A stretch of DNA of 64,000 nt from Vulcanimicrobiota bacterium (GTDB lineage: Bacteria; Vulcanimicrobiota; Vulcanimicrobiia; Vulcanimicrobiales; Vulcanimicrobiaceae). Where the stretch lies: assembly GCA_963777315.1 (NCBI GenBank), contig CAVZQC010000004.1:320001-384000 (forward strand), given 5' to 3'. The notes beneath the pieces were generated by a model. It worked only from the letters and a program-made list of their open reading frames with translations, was not told the origin of the DNA and ran no database searches. Position numbers and translations under genes: made by a program. Positions 39,468 to 54,016 of this stretch are shown piece after piece (position 1 is the stretch's first letter; every line of letters begins with the position of its first letter).

Positions 39468-40658
39468 ATGACTGCCGCGCATCCGCGCCTTAGCGCACCC
39501 GATTCGCTCGACTTTTTGGATATCGATGCGCTGCTGAGCCAAGAAGAGCGCATGATTCGCGATACGGTGCGCGCCTTCGTTCGCGATCGCATCGTTCCCA
39601 ATATCGCGCAGTGGTTTGAAGAAGGCCGGCTTCCGGCGCAGCTCGGCAGGCAGTTGGGCGATCTGGGTCTGCTGGGGATGCATTTGCACGGCTACGGCTG
39701 TCCCGGCGCAAGCGCGGTAGCCTATGGTATTGCCTGCATGGAGTTCGAGGCCGGCGATTCGGGGGTGCGCAGTTTTGCATCGGTGCAAGGCTCGCTGGCG
39801 ATGTACGCGATTCATCGCTGGGCGAGCGAAGAACAAAAGGAGCTTTGGCTGCCCCGCATGGCCAAGGGCGAGGCGCTGGGCTGTTTTGGGCTGAGCGAGC
39901 CGGATTTCGGCAGCAACCCGGCCGGGATGCGCACTCATGCGCGCCGTGACGGCAGCGATTGGATCATCGACGGCACGAAGATGTGGATCACCAACGGCAA
40001 CATCGCCGATGTCGCCGTCATCTGGGCGCAGACCGACGAAGGTATCCGCGGATTCGCAGTTCCCACCGCAGTCAAAGGTTTTTCCGCGCACGCCATCGAG
40101 CGCAAGCTGTCGCTGCGCGCGTCGGTCACGTCCGAGCTCGTTTTGCAAAGCTGCCGCGTTCCATGCGAAGCTGCGTTTCCGGAAGTGCGCGGCCTGCGCG
40201 GTCCGCTGGCATGTTTGAACGAAGCGCGGTACGGCATCGTCTGGGGCTCGATGGGCGCGGCCCGCGCCTGTTACGAAACTGCGCTCTCGTATGCCAAGAC
40301 GCGCGTGCAGTTCGGGCGCCCCATCGCCGCGTACCAGATTACGCAAGAAAAGCTCGTGAATATGATGCTCGAGCTCAACAAAGGTATGCTGCTCGCGCTG
40401 CACATCGGCCGGATGAAGGATCTGCACCGCGCGCACCCATCGCACGTGAGCTTCGGCAAACTCAACAACGTGCGCGAAGCGTTGACGATCGCTCGCGAAG
40501 CCCGCACGATCCTGGGGGCGAACGGCGTCACGTTGGAATATCCGGTCATTCGGCATATGAACAACCTGGAGTCGGTGCTCACGTACGAGGGCACCAGTGA
40601 AATCCACACGCTCATTCTGGGCCAGGAGCTAACCGGGCAAAGCGCGTTCGACGCCTAG
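39468..40658 (+). CDS. Glutaryl-CoA dehydrogenase-like acyl-CoA dehydrogenase
   Basis: DSGVRSFASVQGSL, CFGLSEPDFGSNP, NLESVLTYEGT. Confidence 0.9.
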   Translation: MTAAHPRLSAPDSLDFLDIDALLSQEERMIRDTVRAFVRDRIVPNIAQWFEEGRLPAQLGRQLGDLGLLGMHLHGYGCPGASAVAYGIACMEFEAGDSGVRSFASVQGSLAMYAIHRWASEEQKELWLPRMAKGEALGCFGLSEPDFGSNPAGMRTHARRDGSDWIIDGTKMWITNGNIADVAVIWAQTDEGIRGFAVPTAVKGFSAHAIERKLSLRASVTSELVLQSCRVPCEAAFPEVRGLRGPLACLNEARYGIVWGSMGAARACYETALSYAKTRVQFGRPIAAYQITQEKLVNMMLELNKGMLLALHIGRMKDLHRAHPSHVSFGKLNNVREALTIAREARTILGANGVTLEYPVIRHMNNLESVLTYEGTSEIHTLILGQELTGQSAFDA

Positions 40659-40719
40659 AAAACGCGCTCGTCGGGTGATAAGATGGGTGTGGAGCAAGCT
40701 CCGAAAGAGGCGTTCGACG

Positions 40720-41289
40720 ATGAGGCAACTCGCCGCGACACTGACCGCATTTGCCGCGCTGACCGCAACCGCAGCGGCACAGACCGCGTGTCCTCCGGCC
40801 GTCGTCCACGCCGTGTATGCCGTCGTCACCGGTCCATCGGCCATGCAGCCCTGCAACGCGTTCGCGGGATACGAGCAGCCCAGCCAAGCCGACTTCGGCT
40901 GCGGCGCTCAATGCGCGTTCGACGCCGCGTTCCTGAGCGTACCCGGTGCACTGCCCCTGACCTGTAGGGTGCCGTACCTGTCCCAATATTTCGGTTGGTA
41001 CGGGACGATTCCGCGACACCGCAACGCGCGGGGAGAGTGCGTCACGTTCGATCAACTGTTGCGCAAGCGCACGGCTGCTTCAACCGCCGTTATGCCGTAT
41101 GGGAGCCGCGGCCCGGTGCAAGTGCGGCCTCCGGTCGAGCCGGTGCACGCCGTAACATCGCGTGGTGCCGATCTGGCCCCGCGCGCGCCGTTGCTGCAGG
41201 GCGTTCCTTTTGCTCCAATGCGCGCGGCGAACGCCGCACCGCATGCGAGCGCTTCCCAAGGCGGCAATCACATTCACAACCGGATGTAG
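40720..41289 (+). CDS. Hypothetical secreted Cys-rich protein
   Basis: Signal peptide MRQLAATLTAFAALTATAAA; six Cys; low-complexity tail. Confidence 0.65.
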   Translation: MRQLAATLTAFAALTATAAAQTACPPAVVHAVYAVVTGPSAMQPCNAFAGYEQPSQADFGCGAQCAFDAAFLSVPGALPLTCRVPYLSQYFGWYGTIPRHRNARGECVTFDQLLRKRTAASTAVMPYGSRGPVQVRPPVEPVHAVTSRGADLAPRAPLLQGVPFAPMRAANAAPHASASQGGNHIHNRM

Positions 41290-41307
41290 TCGCGGCGATA
41301 CGGCCGC

Positions 41308-41337
41308 TTGACGAGTCCAAGGCGTTCCTGATAGTAT
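41308..41337 (+). promoter_or_regulatory. Sigma70 promoter upstream of rplC
   Basis: TTGACG-18bp-TAGTAT with extended TG. Confidence 0.65.
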
Positions 41338-41485
41338 CCGTTGGTTGTGGTCGGCCGGCCGCGATAGTTTGCGCGTGCCGGCGGAAACGCTAGCAAGTAC
41401 GCCTGGATCCGTGTACTTGCGGCCCCACGCATTGGAGGCCCGAGAGCAAGTTTGCGGGCCGTTCGGATTGAGGACGAGGATAGGA

Positions 41486-42109
41486 ATGAAAAACATCCTT
41501 GGCCGCAAGGTTGGGATGACGAGCGTATTCACCGACGACGGACGATACGTCCCCGTAACGGTGATACAGGCCGGTCCCTGCACGGTGGTCGAGCGCAGAA
41601 CGAAGGACAAGCACGGCTACGAGGCCGTTGCGCTGGCTTTCGGCGACGTTAAAAAGTCGCGCGTTTCGCGTGCCCTTGCCGGACATTATAAAAAGAACGA
41701 TGCCGAACCGCGGCGCTGGATTCGCGAGTTCCGCGACGACATCGACGGCGTCGAGCCGGGGGCGACGGTGACGGTCGCGCAGTTCGAGCCCGGCGATCGC
41801 GTCGACGTGGTCGGCGTTTCGAAAGGGCACGGCTTCTCCGGGGGCATCAAGCGGCACAACTTCAGCGGCGGCGGCGCAAGCCACGGTTCCATGATTCACC
41901 GTCAGCCCGCGTCCAACGGCGATACCAACGCGGGCCGAACGGTCAAAGGAAGCCGGCGTCCGGGCCACTTCGGCGTCGATCGCACAACGCATCAAAACCT
42001 CGAAGTCGTGCGCGCCGACGCCGAGCGTAATCTGCTGCTGCTGCGCGGTCCGGTTCCGGGCTCCGAGAACGCGCTCATCGTCGTTCGCAAGTCGGTCAAG
42101 CATGCCTAA
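41486..42109 (+). CDS. rplC: 50S ribosomal protein L3
   Basis: [22 protein letters not shown]. Confidence 0.97.
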
Positions 42110-42749
42110 CGTCATCGATTCGACCGGTTCGGTGCTCCGCGAAGAACCTACGCCGGAAGTTTTTGCTCGCGATTACGGCGAGAAGTCGAACGCGATCTTT
42201 CGCGCGGTCCATAGAGAATTCGCGAGCCCGCGCGCGGGAACGGCGTCGACGAAGAAACGCGATGAAGTCAGCGGCGGCGGACGCAAGCCGTGGCGCCAAA
42301 AGGGCACCGGCCGTGCTCGCCAAGGCTCCATTCGCTCTCCGCAGTGGACGCACGGCGGTGTCGTGTTCGGACCGCAGCCGCGCAAGTACACGAGCGATCT
42401 CAACAAGAAGGAACGCCGCGCGGCGTTCCTCGCTGCGCTGTCCGACCGTTTTCGCGGCGATGCGGTAACGGTGCTCGACGCGGCGGATTTCGCTCTGGAA
42501 AAGACCGCCGATTTCGCAGCGCTGCTTTTCGGCAATGCGGCAGCTGCCAAGAAAGGTCCGACCACGCTGGTGGTTTTCGGAATGGACGAGCGCGCCGGCG
42601 AAAAACTGCACCGCGTCGGGCGCAACCTCAAGCGAACCGGCATTACGAATATCGGCGCCCTCGACGTCAAGGACGTGCTGCGCTACAGCCGCATCGTCTT
42701 CACCAAAGAGGCGTACGCACAACTCGTGACTCTGGCGGAGCGGAGCTGA
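42102..42749 (+). CDS. rplD: 50S ribosomal protein L4
   Basis: [19 protein letters not shown]. Confidence 0.97.
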
Positions 42750-42750
42750 C

Positions 42751-43059
42751 ATGGACGCACGCGACGTCATCGTTTCTCCCCGCATCACCGAGAAGTCCAT
42801 GGCGAACGCGCTGGGCCATCAATACGGCTTCGTCGTGCATCCGGACGCGACCAAAACCCAAATTCGCCACGCGATCGAAGAAATTTTTAAAGTGAACGTG
42901 CTCAAGGTCAACACGGTCAACGTAGGCGGCAAGACCAAAACGTTCGCTCGCCGCGGCGCGCGCACGCAAGGCCGCACCAAAGACTATAAAAAGGCTACCG
43001 TCACTCTACGTCCGGGCCAGAAGATCGAACTGGGCGGCGTCAACTATTTCGAGCAATAA
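42751..43059 (+). CDS. rplW: 50S ribosomal protein L23
   Basis: PRITEKS, KKATVTL. Confidence 0.97.
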
Positions 43060-43061
43060 AC

Positions 43062-43889
43062 GTGCCCGTAAAAAAATATAAGCCGACCAGCGCCGGCAAA
43101 CGCTTCATGACGACGATGGACTTCTCCGAACTGAGCAAGGTTCCGGCAGAAAAGTCGCTCGTCGAAGTGCGCAAGAAACATTCCGGACGCAATTCCAACG
43201 GACACATCACCGTTCGCCACAAGGGTGGCGGCACGCGTAAGATGTACCGCATCATCGACTTCAAGCGAACCAAGGATGCAATTCCCGCGAAAGTCGCGAG
43301 TTTGGAGTACGATCCGAACCGTTCGGCGCGCATTGCGCTGCTGAACTACCGCGACGGAGAAAAGCGTTATATCCTCGCTCCAGCCGGCCTGAAAATAGGC
43401 GATCGTTTGGAATCCGGTCCGGCGGCCGATATCAAGACCGGCAACTGCCTGCCGATTCGGAACATTCCGGTCGGCACCGTCATTCACAATATCGAACTGC
43501 GGCCCGGACAAGGCGCCAAACTCGTGCGCAGTGCGGGCGGTGCGGCGCAGCTGATGGCCAAAGAGGGCGATTACGCTCAGGTGCGCATGCCCTCGGGAGA
43601 GGTGCGTAAAGTGCTCGTGGTGTGCCGCGCGACCATCGGTCAGCTCGGCAACGTAGAGCACGAGAACGAAATCGTGGGCAAAGCCGGCCGCCAGCGGCAT
43701 CGCGGCAAGCGCCCGAGCGTGCGCGGCATCGCGATGAATCCCGTGGATCATCCGCACGGCGGCGGCGAAGCGCGCTCGACGTCGGGCCGTCCGCCAACAA
43801 CGCCGTGGGGTCAAATGACGATGGGCAAAAAAACCCGGCGCAACAAGCGCACGCAAAACATGATCGTCCGCAAACGTGGGTCCAAATAG
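43062..43889 (+). CDS. rplB: 50S ribosomal protein L2
   Basis: [23 protein letters not shown]. Confidence 0.98.
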
Positions 43890-43937
43890 ATGAACGACGG
43901 TACATTCGTGCGCGGTTCGCAGCGGAGCGCCTGGTAA
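43890..43937 (+). other. 15-aa bridge mini-ORF MNDGTFVRGSQRSAW exactly filling the rplB-rpsS spacer
   Basis: TAG|ATG ... TAA|ATG. Confidence 0.55.
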
Positions 43938-44213
43938 ATGGGACGCAGCTTAAAGAAAGGCCCGTTCGTGGCCGAACACCTCATCGCCAAAATCGATTCC
44001 CTGAACGAACGGCGTGAGAAGCGCGTCATCAAGACGTGGAGCCGCGCGTCGGTGATCGTTCCCGCGATGGTCGGCCACACGATCGGCGTGCACAACGGTA
44101 AAGCGCACGTGCCCGTTTTCGTCACCGAGAACATGGTGGGACACAAGTTGGGCGAGTTCGCGCCGACTCGCACGTTTCGCGGTCACGGCGGCGACAAGGC
44201 TGCAGTAAAGTGA
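43938..44213 (+). CDS. rpsS: 30S ribosomal protein S19
   Basis: [19 protein letters not shown]. Confidence 0.98.
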
Positions 44214-44465
44214 TGCAACGTAATTTCGGCGCGCCCACGGGGAGCGCTCATATTAGCAGTGCGTTTATGCGCGCCATGGCTTGGGGGCCCCACGCTTTGG
44301 CGTGGGGGGCGCGGAGTTTGGAACGGAGCGCCTTGTACGATGCAACGTAATTTTGGCGCGCCCACGGGGAGCGCTCATATTAGCAGTGCGTTTATGCGCG
44401 CCATGGCCGGGGGGCCCCACGCTTTAGCGTGGGGGGCGCGGAGTTTGGAACGGAGCGCCTTGTAA
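44212..44465 (+). repeat. Tandem duplication of a structured 127-bp unit (2 copies)
   Basis: 44212-44338 and 44339-44465, 5 mismatches; CCCCACGC-TTTR-GCGTGGGG hairpin; ends in CGGAGCGCC RBS. Confidence 0.95.
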
Positions 44466-45014
44466 ATGGAAGCCGTCGCGCATCTCAAGTTCGCCCGCAT
44501 GGGGCCGCGCAAACTGCGCCGCGTCGCCGATGCGATTCGCGGCAGGAGCGTCAAAGAGGCGCTCGTGCTGCTGCAATTCGCCGGAGTGTTCGCCGCAGAG
44601 CCGATGGAGAAATTACTGCGCAGCGCCGTCGCCAACGCAGGCAACAACCACGACATGAATACGGACGAGTTATTCGTCACCCGCGTTACGGTCGACGGCG
44701 GCCCGGGCGGACGTTTCACCAAACGATTGGATCCCCGTGCGCAAGGGCGTGCCAACTTCAAGCGCAAGCGGATGGCTCACGTAACGGTTGTCGTCGGCGA
44801 GCAGCCGCCGGTGAAAAAGCGGCGCAGCTCGGGCGGCGCGTCGATCGGCGTGAAACGCGCAACGACGCGTAAGGGCGCCGCGGCCGGAGCCGCCGGCGCA
44901 AAAGCGCCTGCCAAGCGTAAAGCTTCAGCCCGCAAAACTGCACCGCGCAAAACTTCAACGCGCAAAGCGCGTCCCTCCAAGGCTGGATCAGCCGCAGGCG
45001 AAAAGGCGATTTAA
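44466..45014 (+). CDS. rplV: 50S ribosomal protein L22 with Lys/Ala-rich C-terminal tail
   Basis: [20 protein letters not shown]. Confidence 0.97.
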
Positions 45015-45985
45015 TGGGACAGAAAATTCATCCGGTCGGCCTGCGTCTGGGCATTACGCGTACCTGGGACAGCCGTTGGTTCGAGAAAAAGCACTACAAA
45101 GAGTGGCTGCACGAAGACGTAAAAATCCGCAAGTACTTTGCTCGGCTCGTTCGTCCGGCTGCCATCTCCAAGATCGAGATCGAGCGCAGGGCCAATCAAG
45201 CCCGCGTCATCGTCAATACAGGCAAGCCCGGCATCATCATCGGCAAGCGCGGCGTGGGGATTGAAGAGATCCGCAAAAACATCGAGCAGCTGACCGGCAA
45301 AAACGTCCAAGTCAACGTGATGGAGATTAAGCATCCGGAACTCGACGCGCGGCTGGTCGCGCAAAACATCGTCGATCAGCTCGAAAAGCGCATAGCGTTT
45401 CGGCGTGCGATGAAACAGGCGATCATGCGCACGATGAAAGCGGGTGCGCGCGGTATCAAAGTTCAAGTTTCCGGACGCCTGGGCGGCGCCGAGATCGCGC
45501 GTACCGAGCGCAATGCCGACGGGAAAGTGCCGTTGCACACGCTTCGTGCCGACATCGATTATGCGCAAGTCGAGGCGTTCACAACGTTCGGGCGGATCGG
45601 CGTGAAGGTGTGGATTTACCGCGGTGAAGTGCTTCCGGATCACACGCGCGGACCCGAACGCGAATCGCGCTCGGACCGCCCCCAATTCCGCGACCGCCGC
45701 GAGCGGGGCGGCCGTGGTCGCGGCCGCACCGGCACCGGCCAGCGTCCGGCGCAGTCCGCCGGTGAAACGCCTTCAGGTGAAACGCTTTCAACGGAAGAAG
45801 CGCCGGTTTCCGACGTATCGGAGGCGCAGCAGATCGTTCCCGCGGCGCAGCCGATCGTTCCCGAGGCGCAGCCGATCGTTCCCGGGGCCGAGCAGATCGT
45901 GCCTGAGGCGCAGCAGAACGTTCCCGAGACGCCGGCCGGCGTCACGTCCGATGCAGCGGAGGATGGCAGCGATGCTAACCCCTAA
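45014..45985 (+). CDS. rpsC: 30S ribosomal protein S3 with long C-terminal extension
   Basis: [35 protein letters not shown]. Confidence 0.98.
45821..45925 (+). repeat. 5 x 21-bp coding tandem repeat (EAQQIVP-like) in rpsC tail
   Basis: GAGGCGCAGCAGATCGTTCCC variants. Confidence 0.9.
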
Positions 45986-46406
45986 ACGAGTCAAATGGCG
46001 CCGGGTTCATCGCGGCCGCATGCGCGGCAAAGCGGTGCGCGGCAGCTCGCTCACGTTCGGCGAGTACGGGCTGCAGGCGCTTGAGCCGTGCTGGATGACC
46101 AATCGGCAGATTGAAGCCGCACGTATCGCGATGACCCGCCACATCAAGCGCGGCGGCAAAGTATGGATCAAAGTGTTTCCGGACAAGTCGGTTACGAAAA
46201 AACCGGCTGAAGTGCGCATGGGCGCGGGCAAGGGCAATCCCGAATTTTGGGTCGCCGTGGTGCGGCCCGGGCGCGTGCTGTTCGAGCTTTCCGGCGTTGC
46301 ACCGGACGTTGCGCGGCGAGCGCTGCAGCTTGCCGCCTCGAAGCTTCCTATCGGAACGAAGATTCTTTCGCGTGAGGAGATTCCCCAGGAGCGTGGCGCA
46401 GAATGA
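45972..46406 (+). CDS. rplP: 50S ribosomal protein L16
   Basis: [18 protein letters not shown]. Confidence 0.98.
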
Positions 46407-46624
46407 AGATTCACGAATTCAAAGAACTGCGCAATCTGACCATCGGCGAGCTGCAGCAAAAAGCTCGCGAAACGAAGGAAGAGCTGTTCAACCTTCGCTT
46501 TGCGCTGCGCACCGGTCACTTGTCTGATTTTTCCAAAGTGCGCGCCATTCGCCGCACGTACGCGCAGATCCAAACCGTTATCTCGGAAAAGCGGATCGCG
46601 GAGGCCAGAAATGGAGCAGCATAG
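46403..46624 (+). CDS. rpmC: 50S ribosomal protein L29
   Basis: KEELFNLRF. Confidence 0.95.
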
Positions 46625-46880
46625 CCAAGCGCGGCATAAGCGCCGCACCAAGCAAGGCCGCGTCGTTTCGGACAAAATGGACAAAACGATCGTCGTGCGC
46701 TCGGAAATGCGCGTGCCGCATCCCATTTACGGCAAGATCGTGCGCAAATCAGTGAAATTCAAAGCGCACGACGAACGCAATGAGGCCAAGGCCGGCGATA
46801 CGGTGCGCATCATGGAGTGCCGCCCGCTGTCCAAGGACAAGCGCTGGCGGCTGCTCGAGATTCTGGAGCGCGCCAAGTGA
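46611..46880 (+). CDS. rpsQ: 30S ribosomal protein S17
   Basis: [22 protein letters not shown]. Confidence 0.97.
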
Positions 46881-46897
46881 CGAACTCTCGGACCGAC

Positions 46898-47296
46898 CGG
46901 ACGGAGCGCCTTTTCAAAGCCGTCAGCCCTTTGCAAGCAAAGAATTGCTGCGTCGTAACGCAGCAATTCGATACCGCCTACCGGGCCCAACGGGGGCCCC
47001 TCGCAGTGGGGGGCGCGGAGTCTCGGACGGAGCGCCTTTTCAAAGCCGTCAGCCCTTTGCAAGCAAAGAATTGCTGCGTCGTAACGCAGCAATTCGATAC
47101 TGCCTACCGGGCCCAACGGGGGCCCCACGCAGTGGGGGGCGCGGAGTCTCGGACGGAGCGCCTTTTCAAAGCCGTCAGCCCTTTGCAAGCAAAGAATTGC
47201 TGCGTCGTAACGCAGCAATTCGATACCGCCTACCGGGCCCAACGGGGGCCCCACGCAGTGGGGGGCGCGGAGTCTCGGACGGAGCGCCTTTTCAAA
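46898..47296 (+). repeat. Tandem array of a structured 126-bp unit (3 copies plus 21-bp leading partial)
   Basis: Units start 46919, 47045, 47171; only two variable positions; perfect 12-bp hairpin GAATTGCTGCGT-CGTA-ACGCAGCAATTC; each ends CGGACGGAGCGCCTTTTCAAA. Confidence 0.97.
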
Positions 47297-47673
47297 TGAT
47301 CCAGCAAGAAACCCGCCTCAAAGTCGCCGACAACTCCGGCGCACGCGAGCTGCTGTGCATCCACGTGAGCGGCGGCAGCCGGCATCCGTACGCGCACGTC
47401 GGGGACATCGTGGTCGGCACGGTCAAGAGCGCCATTCCGGGCGCGGCGGTCAAAAAAGGACAAGTCGTCAAGGCCGTCATCGTGCGCACGTCGGCACCGA
47501 TTCGCCGCAGCGACGGTTCCGTCGTCAAGTGCGACGACAACGCCTGCGTGATCATCAAAGGCGACAAGGACAACCTGGACCCGCGCGGCACGCGCGTGTT
47601 CGGCCCGGTCATGCGGGAACTGCGCGACCGCGGCTTTCTGAAGATCGCTTCCCTCGCTCCGGAGGTGCTGTGA
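47296..47673 (+). CDS. rplN: 50S ribosomal protein L14
   Basis: [23 protein letters not shown]. Confidence 0.98.
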
Positions 47674-48023
47674 TGGCAGATATCATCAAGGGCGACACCG
47701 TTGCGATCCGCCGCGGCAAGGAAAAGGGAAAGCGCGGCGTGGTCAAAGCCGTTTTTCCAAAGTCCGGAATGGCGACGGTTGAAGGTTTGAACGTCGTCAA
47801 GCGCCACACCAAACAGGGTTCGCAGCAGCAGAACATGGGTGGTTCCGCGCAGACCGGCGGCATCATCGAAAAGGAAGCCCCCGTTCCCATTTCGGCCCTG
47901 CAGTACGTGTGCGAGAAATGCAGGACGCCCACGCGCATCCGCCGCCATGAAACCGCCGAAGGCACCAAACGCGTTTGCGCCAAGTGCGGCGAGCCCGCGC
48001 GCCTGTCGGTAAAAGGAGCCTAA
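47673..48023 (+). CDS. rplX: 50S ribosomal protein L24
   Basis: KGDTV...GKEKGK KOW motif, GGIIEKEAP. Confidence 0.96.
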   Translation: MADIIKGDTVAIRRGKEKGKRGVVKAVFPKSGMATVEGLNVVKRHTKQGSQQQNMGGSAQTGGIIEKEAPVPISALQYVCEKCRTPTRIRRHETAEGTKRVCAKCGEPARLSVKGA

Positions 48024-48047
48024 TGACACGTTCATTTACGCAGCGAG

Positions 48048-48599
48048 ATGAATAGATTAAAAGAAAAATACGATAAGGAAGTTCGCAGCCGCCTGCGCGA
48101 GCGCTTCGGATATCACAACGTTCATCAAATTCCACGCTTGGAAAAAGTCGTGGTCAACATGAGCGTTGGCGACGCCATCACCAATTCCAAAGTGCTCGAC
48201 ACCGCGGTTGCCGAGCTGCAGGCGATTAGCGGGCAAAAGCCGATCGTGACCAAGGCCAAAAAATCGATCGCCGCCTTCAAACTGCGCGAAGGCATGAACA
48301 TCGGCGCCAAAGTAACGCTCCGGGGCGACCGGATGTACGTGTTTTTGGACAAACTGTTCAACGTGGTGCTGCCGCGCATTCGCGACTTTCGCGGGCTGCC
48401 GCGCAAGTCGTTCGACGGACGCGGAAACTACAACATGGGGCTGCGCGAGCAAATCGTCTTTCCCGAGATCAACTTCGACAAAGTCGAAAAGATGCGCGGC
48501 ATGGACATCGTGATCGTAACGACGGCTAAGAACGACGAGGAAGCCACCGAATTTCTTACCGCGATGGGCTTGCCGCTGCAGAAAGCGGGTGCACGGTAA
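48048..48599 (+). CDS. rplE: 50S ribosomal protein L5
   Basis: [16 protein letters not shown]. Confidence 0.98.
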
Positions 48600-48784
48600 T
48601 GGCAAAAACCGCGCTCATCGAGAAATCGAAGCGGACGCCCAAGTTCAAAGTGCGCGCCCACAACCGTTGCGAGCTTTGCGGCCGGCCCCGCGGCGTTTAC
48701 CGCCGCTTCGGCCTGTGCCGGATTTGCTTTCGCGAGAACGCGCATAAAGGCAACGTTCCCGGCATTACCAAGGCGTCGTGGTGA
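48599..48784 (+). CDS. rpsN: 30S ribosomal protein S14, Zn-binding type Z
   Basis: 61 aa, CELC...CRIC, KASW. Confidence 0.97.
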
Positions 48785-48802
48785 ACCGGAGGATAGTGTA
48801 AA

Positions 48803-49204
48803 GTGGCTGTCATCACCGACCCCATCGCCGACATGCTTACGCGCATTCGCAATGCCAATACGGCAAACCACGACGTGGTCAACGTGCCGGCTTCGCGCAT
48901 GAAGCGGGCGGTCGCGCAAATCCTCAAGGAAGAGGGCTTTATCGTGGACTTCGAGCGTGTGGATGAAGGCCCGCAAGGCACCATCCGCATCAAGCTCAAG
49001 TACGGCCCGAACAAGGAAAAAGTCATCACGGGCCTGCGGCGCATTTCTCGCCCAGGCTTGCGCGTGTATACCAACAAAACCGAAATACCGCGCGTTCTGG
49101 GCGGCTTGGGCGTCGTCATCATGTCCACGTCCAGAGGCATCATGTCCGGCAAGCGCGCCAAAAAAGAAGGCTGCGGGGGCGAAGTCCTCGCTTACGTGTG
49201 GTAA
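48803..49204 (+). CDS. rpsH: 30S ribosomal protein S8
   Basis: [22 protein letters not shown]. Confidence 0.98.
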
Positions 49205-49206
49205 TT

Positions 49207-49755
49207 ATGAGCAGAATAGGAAAATTGCCCGTCGCAGTCCCCAGCGGCGTGAACGTGGAGATTGCCGACGGCGAAGTGCGCGTCAAAGGGCCTAAAGGCG
49301 AACTGCGCGAGCGCGTGCTCGAGCTCGTTGCCGTCAAGCTCCACGACGGCAAGGTCGTGGTCGAACGCCGAGGCGACGCCAAAGAGCACCGCGCGGCGCA
49401 CGGCCTGACGCGCACGCTGGTCAACAACATGATCCAGGGAGTAAGCAAAGGGTTTCGCCGCAGCCTGGAGATCCAAGGCGTCGGCTATCGCGCAGCCAAG
49501 GCGGGAGAGAATCTGAATCTGACGTTAGGATACTCGCATCCCGTGAGCTACGCGCCGCCCAGCGGCATCACGCTCTCGGTCGAAGGCACCAATAGAGTTC
49601 ACGTGGAGGGCATCGACAAGCAGCAAGTCGGCCAAGTGGCCGCCGAAATTCGCGATCTGCGTGCGCCCGAGCCGTACAAAGGCAAAGGCATCCGCTACGC
49701 AGGCGAGATCGTGCGCAAGAAACTCGGTAAAGCCGGAAAGGCCGGTAAGAAGTAA
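49207..49755 (+). CDS. rplF: 50S ribosomal protein L6
   Basis: MSRIGKLP, PEPYKGKGIRY. Confidence 0.98.
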   Translation: MSRIGKLPVAVPSGVNVEIADGEVRVKGPKGELRERVLELVAVKLHDGKVVVERRGDAKEHRAAHGLTRTLVNNMIQGVSKGFRRSLEIQGVGYRAAKAGENLNLTLGYSHPVSYAPPSGITLSVEGTNRVHVEGIDKQQVGQVAAEIRDLRAPEPYKGKGIRYAGEIVRKKLGKAGKAGKK

Positions 49756-50120
49756 TGGCGCGCATTTCACGCGACGACTCCCGCCGCAAGCGGCACACTC
49801 GCCTGCGCCGCAAGGTCGCAGGTTCGAGCGAACGTCCGCGTTTGCTGATCCGGCGCACTCTGCATCACATCTATGCAACCGTCGTCGACGATGCCGCAGG
49901 GCACACGCTCGTCGCCGCATCGACGCGCGAAAAGGGTCTAGCGGGGGCATTGGATTCAACCGCCAATCTGGCTGCCGCCGAGAAGATCGGTCAGGTCATC
50001 GCCGCCAAAGCCAAAGAGGCCGGCATCACGCAGGTCGTGTTCGATCGCAGCGGTTTGAAGTATCACGGCCGCGTGAAGGCGCTGGCCGACGCAGCTCGTC
50101 AAGCGGGACTGGAGTTCTAA
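49755..50120 (+). CDS. rplR: 50S ribosomal protein L18
   Basis: VVFDRSGLKYHGRV. Confidence 0.97.
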   Translation: MARISRDDSRRKRHTRLRRKVAGSSERPRLLIRRTLHHIYATVVDDAAGHTLVAASTREKGLAGALDSTANLAAAEKIGQVIAAKAKEAGITQVVFDRSGLKYHGRVKALADAARQAGLEF

Positions 50121-50627
50121 ATGCAATATCGTGGCCGCGACCGGGACAATTCCGGATTCGAAGAAACGGTCGTTCGCGTCAATCGCGTAGCAAAGGTCGT
50201 CAAGGGCGGTAAGCGCTTCAGCTTCAGCGCCTTGGTCGTGGTCGGCGATCGCAAGGGCAAAGTCGGTTACGCGATCGGCAAGGCCGGCGAAGTTCCCGAA
50301 GCGATCCGCAAGGGCGTCGAACAGGCAAAGAAAAGTTTGGTGTCAGTCCCAATGGTCGAGAAAACGATTCCGCACATCGTGAATCATCAAATCGGTTCGG
50401 CCCACGTGCTGCTCAAGCCCGCCGCTCCGGGTACGGGCGTCATCGCCGGCGGTGCGATGCGCGCAGTGCTCGAGCTGGCCGGCATCCACGACATTCTGAC
50501 AAAGTCGCTGGGAACGAACAATCCGATCAACGTCGTGTACGCGACCGTCGAAGCGCTGCGTTCGCTCACGACCGCCGAGCGGGTCGCTGCGCTGCGCGGA
50601 AAAAGCGTCGCGGATATTTTTGCTTGA
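50121..50627 (+). CDS. rpsE: 30S ribosomal protein S5
   Basis: [21 protein letters not shown]. Confidence 0.98.
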
Positions 50628-50651
50628 AGCGTAACGTGAGATTCGGACAAT

Positions 50652-51249
50652 ATGGCACAATCCAAGCGTAAAAAGACCCCGGCCAAAGCGGCCGCGCCCA
50701 AAACCCGGGCAGTGGAGAAGCCGGCTGTTATTGCGGGCGGCGGCGGTTCGACGCTTACGCTCGCTCAGCTGAAACCCGCGCCGGGCAGCCGGCCCAAGCG
50801 CACGCGCGTCGGGCGCGGGCATGGCTCCGGCATGGTCAAGACCGGCGGCGAGGGCGGCAAAGGCCAAACGGTGCGTTCGGGCGGCGGGAAAGGCCCCGCG
50901 TTCGAGGGCGGCCAGACGCCCTGGGCGCGCCGTCTGCCGCATCGGCGGGGATACTCGCAAAAAGCGCGCGACATCGGTCATTTTCGCACCCGTTTGGCCG
51001 TCGTCAATTTGAACGAGCTGATTCGATTGGGATCCTTCGGTCGAAGTGACGCCGCAAACGCTCAAAGTCGCACGCAAGATCAAGTCCATGCGTGACGGCG
51101 TAAAGATTCTGGGCGGCAATGCGAGCCGGTCCAAGGACGGCAAGACGCTTCCCACGGGACTGCGGTTCCGCGACGTGCTGTTTTCGAACAGCGCGCGCGA
51201 GGCGCTGACCGCCGCGGGGGCAACGATCGAGCCGGTCAGCGCACCCTAG
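50652..51249 (+). CDS. rplO: 50S ribosomal protein L15 (apparent +1 frameshift ~51023, likely sequence error)
   Basis: RVGRGHGSG, FEGGQTP; C-half VKILGG...AREALTAAG in next frame. Confidence 0.92.
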
Positions 51250-52545
51250 TGCTGAACAATCTGCGCGCTGCGCTGCTCGTCCCGGACATCCGTGCACGGG
51301 TCATGTTCGTGTTTTTCTCGTTCGCGGTGTTCGTTTTCATGATTCACGTGCAGTTGCCCAACGTGAACGACAAGGTTTGGCAGCAGCTGCTGTCCCAGGG
51401 AGTGTTTTACAACCTGCTGGGCTTTTTGTCCGGCGGCGCACTGCAGAAGTCTGTCTATCATCGCGATGGGCATCACACCCTACATCAACGCCTCGATCAT
51501 CATGCAGCTGATGACCGTCGTGCTGCCGCAGCTCGAGGAGATGGCCAAAAAAGGCGGCGAGGAAGGGCGCAAGAAAATCGGCCAGTACACGCGCTGGCTG
51601 ACGATCGTGCTGGCCACCCTGCAGGCGTTCTTCATGGCGAACATGATGCGCTCGGCGGGCGTGTTTTACGACAACAGCATTTGGTTCGAGCTGTTCGCGG
51701 TCACCGCGATGGTGGGCGGAACGCTGTTTCTCATGTGGCTGGGCGAGCAGATCACCGACAAAGGGATCGGCAACGGCGTGTCGTTGATCATCTTCATCGG
51801 CATCGTCCTGCGCTACCCGCAGTACGTCGCCCAGACCTACACGTCGACGACCAAAGGCGGCGAGTCCATCGCCAACATCGTCATCTACATCCTGATCGCG
51901 ATCGCCGTCGTCATCTCGATCGTGTTTCTCTACCAAGGGCAGCGCCGCGTTCCGGTGCAGCAGGCGCGCCGCGTCGTGGGCCGCAAGATGTTCGCCGGCC
52001 GGTCGACGTACATTCCGCTGCGTCTGAACAACGCCGGCGTCATCTCGATCATCTTCGCCATTTCGCTGCTGCTGCTGCCGCAGCAGGCGCTTTCGTGGTT
52101 CAATCGCGGCGGGGTTCACGCGGGAATCTGGGGCGGCGTTTCGGACTGGGTCAGCGTGTATTTCAGTCCCAACTCCTGGCTGTACAACCTGGTGTACTTC
52201 GTTTTGGTCGTCGTCTTCACGTTCTTCTATAGCGCCATCGTGATCAACACCAAAGATATCGCCGACAACCTCAAGAAAAGCGGCTCGTTCATTCCCGGCA
52301 TTCGGCCCGGCCAGCCGACGGTCGACTACATCAATCGAATCCTCATGCGCATCACCACCGCTGCCGCAATCTATCTCGGTTTGCTCGCGGTGCTGCCTGG
52401 AGCGCTTCAGCGCGGGCTCTCCGTCACGACGTTCTATTTGGGATCGACGTCGCTGCTGATCGTGGTCGGCGTTGCGCTCGACACGATCACGCAGATCGAA
52501 GCTCGCTTGGCGATGCGCGATTACCGGGGCTTCATCAAACGCTAA
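51249..52545 (+). CDS. secY: Preprotein translocase SecY (apparent +1 frameshift ~51450)
   Basis: MGITPYINASII, GIGNGVSLII, FIPGIRPG; AAG T CTG TCT ATC extra base. Confidence 0.95.
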
Positions 52546-52564: not shown

Positions 52565-53215
52565 ATGCGTCTGATTTTTCTGGGACCGCCCGGAGCCGGA
52601 AAAGGCACGCAGGCCCAGCTGCTGCAGGGGCGGCTAGGCTCGCGCCAGATCTCCACGGGCGACATCCTGCGTGAAAATCGCAGCCTTCGGACGGAACTGG
52701 GCAAAGCGGCCGAAAGTTTCATGCTCAAGGGCGCGCTGGTGCCCGATGAACTGGTCGTGAAGATGATCGAGCGCGAGCTCGACAAGACGCCGGGCGGGTT
52801 CATTCTGGATGGATTCCCGCGCACCGTTGCGCAAGCGGAAACCCTAGACGCACTGCTGGCCGCCAAGAGCATGTCGATCGATGCGGCTCTTTTGTTCAAA
52901 GCAGACCGCGCAGCGCTGCTGGAACGCCTGACGGCGCGCTGGACCAATCCGCATACGGGAAGAACGTACAACACGATCAGCAATCCTCCGCGCGTTGCCG
53001 GAATCGACGACGAAGACGGCACGCCGCTGGTTCAGCGCGAGGACGACAAACCTGCGACGGTCGCGAAGCGGCTCGAGGTTTACGATCGCCAAACGGCGCC
53101 GCTGATAGAGTATTACCGTCGAGTCGGCAAGCTCGTCGAAATCGACGCCATGGATTCGATGCAGGGCGTTACCGATCAGATCGTGGCCAAGCTCGCGGCC
53201 AAGGCGGCATCGTGA
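52565..53215 (+). CDS. adk: Adenylate kinase
   Basis: GPPGAGKGTQA, LDGFPRT. Confidence 0.97.
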   Translation: MRLIFLGPPGAGKGTQAQLLQGRLGSRQISTGDILRENRSLRTELGKAAESFMLKGALVPDELVVKMIERELDKTPGGFILDGFPRTVAQAETLDALLAAKSMSIDAALLFKADRAALLERLTARWTNPHTGRTYNTISNPPRVAGIDDEDGTPLVQREDDKPATVAKRLEVYDRQTAPLIEYYRRVGKLVEIDAMDSMQGVTDQIVAKLAAKAAS

Positions 53216-54016
53216 TTTCGATAAAGTCCGCTCGCGAGATAGAAACGATGCGCCGCAGCGGCAAGATCACCGCCAAGGTCTTGGGCGATCTGATGCGCGC
53301 AGCCAAGCCCGGAATGACGACCGGCGAACTCGACCGCATGGCCGAGCAAGGGATCCGCTCGATGGGCGCAATCCCGACGTTCAAAGGCTATCACGGCTTT
53401 CCGTGCTCGATTTGCACGTCGGTGAACCAGCAAGTCGTACACGGCATTCCGGGGCGGTACGTGCTGGCCGAAGGAGACCTGCTCTCGATCGACATCGGCG
53501 CCACCTTGGATGGTTACGTGAGCGACAGTGCCGTGACGGTTCCAATCGGCAACGTCAGCGCGGCCGCGGCGCGGCTCATGAGCGTTACTCAGGAGTGTCT
53601 CATGATCGGCATCGCGCAGATGCGCGCAGGCGGCCGGCTCGGAGATATCGGCCATGCCGTACAGCAGCATGCCGAATCCCATGGATACGGTGTTGTACGC
53701 GAGCTGAGTCGGCCACGGCGTTGGAACGAAGATGCACGAAGAGCCTCAGGTCCCCAACTACGGGCGCGCGGGCTCGGGCATCGAACTTCGGCCCGGGCTG
53801 GTTCTGGCGATAGAGCCCATGATCACCCAGGGCCATTACGCGGTGCAGACGCTCGAAGACGGCTGGACAGTGGTCGCGGCAGATGGTAAACTCGCAGCGC
53901 ACTTCGAGCACACGATCGCCGTGACGGACGACGGCCCGAAAGTTTTGACCCTGCGCGACATCGGCGAACATCCCGACGCGGAAAAGTACCGCCCCAAAGC
54001 CGAGATCGCGGCCTAA
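53212..54016 (+). CDS. map: Methionine aminopeptidase (apparent +1 frameshift ~53707)
   Basis: VVHGIP, DIG...SDSA; GHGVG..MHEEP, AIEPM, AHFEHT in next frame. Confidence 0.95.

Follow-up and report, generated by a model that had tools for sequence, protein, structure and literature searches.

The S10-spc ribosomal-protein operon of a Vulcanimicrobiota bacterium is present in the 64,000-nt stretch of DNA analysed here (contig CAVZQC010000004.1; the window, whose positions are given below, G000 being the genome that holds it), and two tandem arrays with a common hairpin module lie between its genes. What is this module, and how is it accommodated at the start codons of such an operon? Our analysis identifies the module as the conserved 3′ core of non-coding repeats of about 110–127 nt located at operon start codons, and makes it likely that these repeats spread as non-autonomous mobile DNA and are tolerated because a mini open reading frame (mini-ORF) would pass ribosomes on. 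The repeats constitute a real family within one Eremiobacterota family, apparently undescribed, and resemble MIRUs (mycobacterial interspersed repetitive units, a name that reportedly goes back to Supply et al. in 1997).

Array 1 lies between rpsS (43938..44213; all window features given here are on the + strand) and rplV (44466..45014) and consists of two 127-nt repeats (44212-44464, 97% identical). Its first unit (44213..44339, 127 nt) is composed of an ATG, a 5′ part termed module A (44228..44275, second copy 44355-44402) and the 3′ core, and its second unit occupies 44340..44465. Array 2 lies between rpsQ (46611..46880) and rplN (47296..47673) and consists of three 126-nt repeats and a 21-nt terminal repeat (46898-47296, 99% identical). 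Each of its three units (46919..47295) combines a third type of 5′ module with the 3′ core, and an element 3′ fragment containing the 21-nt terminal repeat (46881..46918) precedes the first of them. The core is common to all five units (44283-44332, 44410-44459, 46992-47036, 47118-47162 and 47244-47288). The copy at 46992 carries one substitution, A to T in the first hairpin arm, the fourth copy has a GCA triloop, and the second and fifth copies end 6 nt from the rplV ATG and 7 nt from the rplN ATG, respectively. The reading frame of the module is the same up to its loop and differs beyond it, and rpsS, rplV and rplN are each preceded by CGGAGCGCC-N4/5-AAATG. An earlier reading of the window from its letters (the sequence-only reading) had described the common module, its frames, this motif and the nearly equal unit sizes, and all of these were recovered here. 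A 15-mer of the core has five exact matches in the window, compared with 0.52 expected at up to two mismatches, and five were reached in none of 100 shuffles. The 97–99% identity of units within each array would fit an artefact of assembly or local duplication, with the module being a chance match or an ordinary ribosome-binding site (RBS). We regard this explanation as very improbable, because the units differ by substitutions, arrays and single copies are found in many independent genomes and metagenomes, and the motif is far above chance.

A covariance model seeded from 17 copies, with GNA loops in the seed, detected 13 matches at six loci in G000, including an array of four 107-nt units before alaS and one of three 66-nt units. 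Arrays of two to four units occur at four G000 loci and also in relatives. Matches were found in 19 of 41 genomes, namely G000 and 18 of the 24 in family f1, with 1–43 copies each, and in none of the 16 more distant genomes (five in f2, eleven in f3). The highest counts per genome, at least 43, at least 37 and at least 34, are lower bounds because only about 131 candidates were scored per genome. After removal of two duplicates, 114 aligned matches gave 112 copies; three of these (L088, L094 and L107) come from the unpublished genomes G019, G021 and G036, which are counted in, and none of the conclusions depends on these genomes alone. Scanning GTDB for the exact pattern returned 47 loci, of which 42 were titled Eremiobacterota, Vulcanimicrobiota or their members and none Mycobacterium. 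Among four otherwise-titled carrier genomes, RplN was 90–96% identical to that of the window in three, and G044 had no RplN match. Spread to other phyla was considered and rejected: the carriers titled Limnocylindria and Acidoferrum have RplN 90–91% identical, within the f1 range, and are therefore not counted as outside the lineage.

Copy number is patchy on the ribosomal-protein tree. In a sample dominated by G013, G007 and G001, 55 of 92 copies had their nearest neighbour within their own genome (12.7 expected), and the closest copy was the same-site partner in one of 19 same-site pairs. Both results would be explained by gene conversion as well as by insertion recurring at favoured junctions. 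G000 also has further tandem or paired repeats of 117, 106, 68-69 and about 81 nt (C2:265713-266458, C5:5438-5826 and C4:792250-792450), the last of which resembles the hairpin motif in part. At C4:609807-610121 and C4:683878-684195, tandemly repeated units of 135 and 111 nt look like duplicated tRNA 3′ ends.

Filled and empty alleles were compared at orthologous junctions, which are mostly empty in relatives. The rpsQ-rplN gap is 9 nt or shorter in 35 of 41 genomes (−4 in 22 of them) and is filled by the element in G000, G001 and G015. The rpsS-rplV junction is filled in G000 alone among 34 genomes. The rplB-rpsS gap is at most 4 nt in 26 of 33 genomes, and a full element is present there in G015 and G016, so that the 48 nt at this junction in the window (43890..43937) are a remnant. 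The sequence-only reading had likened this site to an empty one; it is an eroded copy that retains the GGAGCGCC end and a coupled 15-aa ORF, which begins right after the rplB stop and ends right before the rpsS ATG. The start of the G016 element is identical to array 1 at 34 of 37 bases, which places the 5′ end of the element at the ATG. At rpsH-rplF, the congener G001 has an element with ATG on both sides, and G000 is empty. Target junctions are tight: orthologous G000 gaps are 30 nt or shorter in 26 of 31 cases, compared with about 60% genome-wide. With dispersed copies, length variation, filled and empty alleles and a non-random position relative to start codons, the family agrees with the earlier proposal of an uncharacterised element with a constant 3′ end, and the outcomes named there as refuting it did not arise.

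Several other sequences were seen at such junctions. Three G000 starts (C1:212703 on the − strand, C5:92154 and C1:448098 on the + strand) are preceded by GNAGCGCC and 7 nt, probably as eroded copies, and the probable remnant at C1:448098 retains a coupled mini-ORF. In the f2 genomes G028, G029 and G026 (L047, L048 and L053), the rpsQ-rplN junction contains a different-looking, GNA-rich insert that model R1 misses; in G028 it holds a frame of 35 codons, with a −4 overlap on either side. Unrelated palindromic inserts of 114–274 nt occupy rplW-rplB in G014, G002 and G011 (L049, L058 and L067) and rplD-rplW in G027 (L046), and rpsS-rplV of G005 (L056) has a different tandem duplication of ~95 nt whose first bases are ATG.

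The 112 copies show a strong bias towards start codons. The downstream gene is on the same strand in 93 and the upstream gene in 79, 53 have a called start no more than 20 nt away, and an ATG follows the core by 5–8 nt in 62, as it does in 38 of 80 metagenome copies (a sample of 80 from at least 125 loci). The enrichment at starts for which the sequence-only reading had asked is thus present. Its suggestion that the element carries or targets RBSs holds in so far as copies bring a GGAG to these starts; this GGAG ends 10–11 nt upstream of the ATG, a spacing in the tail of the distribution for this genome, which peaks at 5–8 nt, and the 16S tail is ordinary.

How, then, might translation be continued across an inserted copy? 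In the window, the genes are joined by relay chains. The first runs from rplB through the 15-aa ORF to rpsS and then through ORFs of 45 and 41 aa to rplV: the rpsS TGA and the unit 1 ATG share one base, the stop of mini-ORF 1 (44213..44350, 45 aa) reaches 11 nt into unit 2, and mini-ORF 2 (44340..44465, 41 aa) ends in a TAA abutting the rplV ATG. The second runs from rpsQ to rplN through a 140-aa ORF spanning the whole of array 2 (46877..47299), with a −4 overlap at each end, GTGA with the rpsQ stop and ATGA with the rplN start. Since the array 2 unit is 126 nt, the frame of this ORF is kept at any copy number.

Coupling was examined in the 37 copies with a same-strand upstream stop within 130 nt and a called start within 12 nt, a copy being scored as coupled when an ORF extends from the upstream stop region to within −8 to +4 of the downstream start. 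A coupled mini-ORF was present in 28 of the 37, compared with 5 and 2 after frameshifts of 1 or 2 nt, and in 13 of 287 ordinary G000 gaps of 60–200 nt. The metagenome sample replicated this result (17 of 25, against 3 and 5 after shifting). The three frames are used 9, 12 and 7 times among the 28, the spacing at the 3′ side is −4 in 15, and the peptides are not conserved. Frame, not peptide, is what the mini-ORFs keep. To judge from this arrangement, a ribosome that reaches the stop of the upstream gene would likely be handed on by them to the start of the next, and the 40–140-aa ORFs annotated at such loci are probably not proteins with functions of their own.

The core folds as a G/C hairpin followed by GGCGC-GNA-stem-loop-stem′-GNA-GCGCC. 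Two-sided changes occupy 25 cells of the seed alignment; in 111 copies, 162 two-sided and few one-sided changes were counted, a level reached in none of 500 shuffles. The internal loop is GNA/GNA in 94 of the 111 copies, and the hairpin loops are triloops in 58 of 81 cases (21 of them C-GNA-G), GNRA in three and UNCG in none. Stable DNA motifs include d(GNA) triloops closed by a C:G pair and zippers flanked by G-A pairs (PMC3201870, PMC11014236). The match of loop types to these motifs suggests folding as single-stranded DNA. RNA folding of single window units (z from −0.8 to −2.5) was not decisive.

These hairpins could instead belong to a host regulatory RNA, in which a protein-binding hairpin beside the Shine-Dalgarno site tunes the translation of selected genes, including ribosomal-protein genes. 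GGA lies in loops close to start codons and is slightly more frequent among copies with an ATG (50 of 55) than among those without (57 of 73), remnants retain a Shine-Dalgarno-like end, and certain junctions are occupied in more than one genus (rpmJ, in five genomes; rpsS, rplF, atpA, alaS and nuoD), all of which would suit such a role. However, presence at any given junction is sporadic, the neighbours are varied housekeeping genes without a common function (valS, atpA, nuoD, dnaJ, mreB and nusA among them), and antisense and intragenic copies exist. The middle base of the left-side GNA varies freely (GCA in 50 and GGA in 49 of 111), and Rfam covariance models run over 40000-52000 gave a single match at chance level (E 2.4, outside the arrays). 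A regulatory RNA is thus quite unlikely as the general explanation, although single sites may have been secondarily domesticated. The narrower candidate of a ribosomal-protein leader or autogenous site, which the sequence-only reading had raised as a repeated RNA–protein site, is not supported, given the same sporadic presence and the fact that most annotated neighbours are not ribosomal proteins.

Aligned with each other, the 5′ parts of the two arrays score 9 and the 3′ modules 75, in line with the earlier statement that these 5′ ~80 nt are unrelated; each 5′ part, however, recurs in other genomes directly upstream of the same core. Among 237 distinct copies, 101 have module A, the commonest 5′ module of the family and the one in array 1, 39 have a second module and 97 have neither. 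Module A folds into a closing stem that encloses a small CCC-NNN-GGG hairpin and a variable loop, and its arm reaches at least 5 bp in 86 of the 101 copies against 22 in shuffled controls. The array 2 module, which contains a 28-nt palindrome (46942-46969, 47068-47095 and 47194-47221), recurs right before the core in G007, G055 and L307, where palindromes of this type show compensatory changes. The part predicted to be variable cargo does vary, and it consists of a few reusable structured modules rather than unique cargo.

A sister form, in which a second G/C hairpin follows, occurs on either strand and in frame inside genes. In dxr it is found antisense and with variable length at one site in six genomes (L191, L203, L219, L220, L224 and L232), adding 23–34 residues in the five that were aligned. 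It is also present in a NuoE/F fusion, mnmE, gcvPB and dnaE2 (listed as L225, L197, L195 and L108:3129-3193); these host gene names were read from translations, and NuoE/F from a Pfam scan of neighbours.

By what enzyme could such a repeat be moved? The sequence-only reading had proposed HUH or reverse transcriptase (RT) mobilisation and a RAYT (REP-associated tyrosine transposase), IS200, IS110 or RT gene flanked by the motif. Y1_Tnp (PF01797), Y2_Tnp and RVT_1 were searched for in the 41 genomes, which are 70–99% complete, and occurred in none of the 19 carriers. IS110 was found in five of the 19 (not in G000, G007, G011, G013 or G015), with no copy beside it, and DUF559 in two genomes, once marginally. 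GIY-YIG is present in all 41 genomes and therefore has no discriminating power, and none of these six families tracks the element across the 41 genomes. The model had no match in 39 Y1/GIY-YIG loci (nine of them Y1) and only two weak ones (E 0.14 and 0.6), no clear copy, in 30 RT/IS110/DUF559 loci, and the exact pattern had no match in viral contigs. No mobile-element domain was detected by Pfam scans, which covered 76 of 90 proteins encoded downstream, 50 neighbours chosen by hand (with some repeats) and 49 of 59 neighbours without a G000 homologue. Two inverted pairs ~2 kb apart were rejected as autonomous elements: that in L108 is the intragenic dnaE2 copy plus an intergenic one, and the copies in L109 precede ordinary genes.

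These searches bear on a further explanation, a repetitive extragenic palindromic (REP) or REPIN (REP doublet) type repeat moved by a transiently visiting HUH enzyme (RAYT/IS200), IS91, IS110 or RT. The DNA-type hairpin loops, GC-rich palindromes and tandem and in-frame intragenic copies are shared with REPs, REP families without a dedicated transposase are on record (PMC3733652), and several of the searched genomes are incomplete. Given the distribution of these enzymes among the 19 carriers and the lack of clear copies at their loci and of exact matches in viral contigs, we consider this explanation unlikely. A tie between CGTC REPs and GIY-YIG nucleases found no support, with no occurrence in PMC3733652.

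For non-autonomous mobile DNA, the reading we prefer, the following course can be proposed. A copy would enter just after an ATG, and its own AT-rich tail plus ATG would rebuild the start, leaving ATG on both sides of the copy. Once transcribed, the GGAG of the element would be buried in the last stem until a ribosome on the mini-ORF opens the stem and re-initiates. Tandem arrays may arise when units recombine unequally or slip locally, and old copies would be worn down by deletion until the GGAGCGCC end is left. The folded core is the likely movement signal, and a trans-acting enzyme would probably recognise it in single-stranded DNA. A more specific and rather doubtful version is that this signal (GNA triloops and the GNA/GNA zipper) serves an enzyme other than RAYT/IS200, IS91, IS110 or RT, which picks up 5′ modules and writes copies into start codons. 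If so, the RBSs and coupling of core operons would be rewritten over time, and the covarying copies together with the range of 0 to 43 copies would offer a handle on how MIRU-like repeats move.

Several observations weigh against the preferred reading. Because the structure guided the alignment and GNA loops were part of the model's seed, the structure counts are biased in favour of this reading, and folding z-scores (−1.2 to −2.2) do not clearly separate DNA from RNA. There is no ATG within 14 nt in 44 of the 112 copies, some copies are antisense or inside genes, the loci from GTDB showed weaker coupling (8 of 15, compared with 3 and 1 after shifting), and gene starts come from a hexamer-based gene caller made for the analysis. 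Just three of the 31 orthologous G000 gaps are −4 or −1, so a strict tetranucleotide target is not borne out, and the exact insertion ends rest on few pairs, with one same-genus relative only. Most dispersed copies have diverged from one another (similarity score within genomes 0.27 on average), and no mobilising gene was found among the searched families, DDE transposases, integrases, TnpB and relaxases not having been searched for. Present-day mobility is therefore not established.

Two further features of the window were recorded. The C-terminus of rpsC is extended by about six in-frame 21-nt repeats (45793-45953), and secY and map look split across frames (51249-51500 and 53212-54016), possibly by sequencing frameshifts.

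Literature searches, whose coverage did not extend to subscription journals and supplements, found no description of this repeat family. The relay mini-ORFs, which the sequence-only reading had missed, make it MIRU-like. MIRUs are inserted at start codons with an internal ORF coupled to the neighbours, often by −4 (PMC12548453, PMC3184786, PMC2734929), and longer MIRU arrays are linked to higher mRNA of the downstream gene (PMC2734929). As with MIRUs, the repeats are short, dispersed by the tens per genome and inside operons (1–43 copies in the 19 carriers), the internal ORF overlaps or abuts the flanking genes (28 of 37, with −4 spacing in 15 of the 28), and copies are inserted at start codons between short direct repeats (at rplF of G001, the copy is flanked by an ATG on either side). 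Tandem arrays and internal GC-rich inverted repeats are also shared. Unlike MIRUs of 40–100 bp, the units here measure 110–127 nt and belong to another phylum; coupling also occurs with spacings of 0 and +1, one core is combined with three or more exchangeable 5′ modules, and the sister form occurs on both strands and also within genes, where it keeps the frame. Judged by layout, not by sequence kinship, the family works like a MIRU without being classed as one.

With REP, REPIN and RPE palindromes (PMC3733652), the family shares GC-rich intergenic palindromes, grouped copies, in-frame copies in proteins and, for some families, the lack of a known transposase. It differs in its larger multi-hairpin unit, its fixed orientation to starts, its relay ORF and the absence of RAYT from the carriers, and the GTAG/CGTC tags of REPs are not part of the core alignment. 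Neisserial REP2 also has a promoter and heads transcripts (PMC3184786), whereas the copies here are mostly inside operons and provide a bridging ORF. Like miniature inverted-repeat transposable elements (PMC3184786), the copies are short, non-autonomous and foldable and have filled and empty sites; unlike them, the ends are not complementary by inspection, with no terminal inverted repeats evident, and no cognate insertion sequence was found beside copies for IS110 and the other tested enzymes (DDE families were not searched for).

The principle is thus known from MIRUs, for which the consulted sections of PMC12548453, PMC3184786 and PMC2734929 name no mobilising enzyme; new are the DNA-type structure, the modular build and the missing enzyme, for which sister genomes with 0 to 43 copies allow a search. 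Essential operons, and even essential genes (dxr), accept inserts, and eroded copies are left behind as RBSs. To what is described for MIRUs, the present family adds a structural definition by covarying stems and DNA-type loops, exchangeable 5′ modules, and statistics on the keeping of frame rather than peptide.

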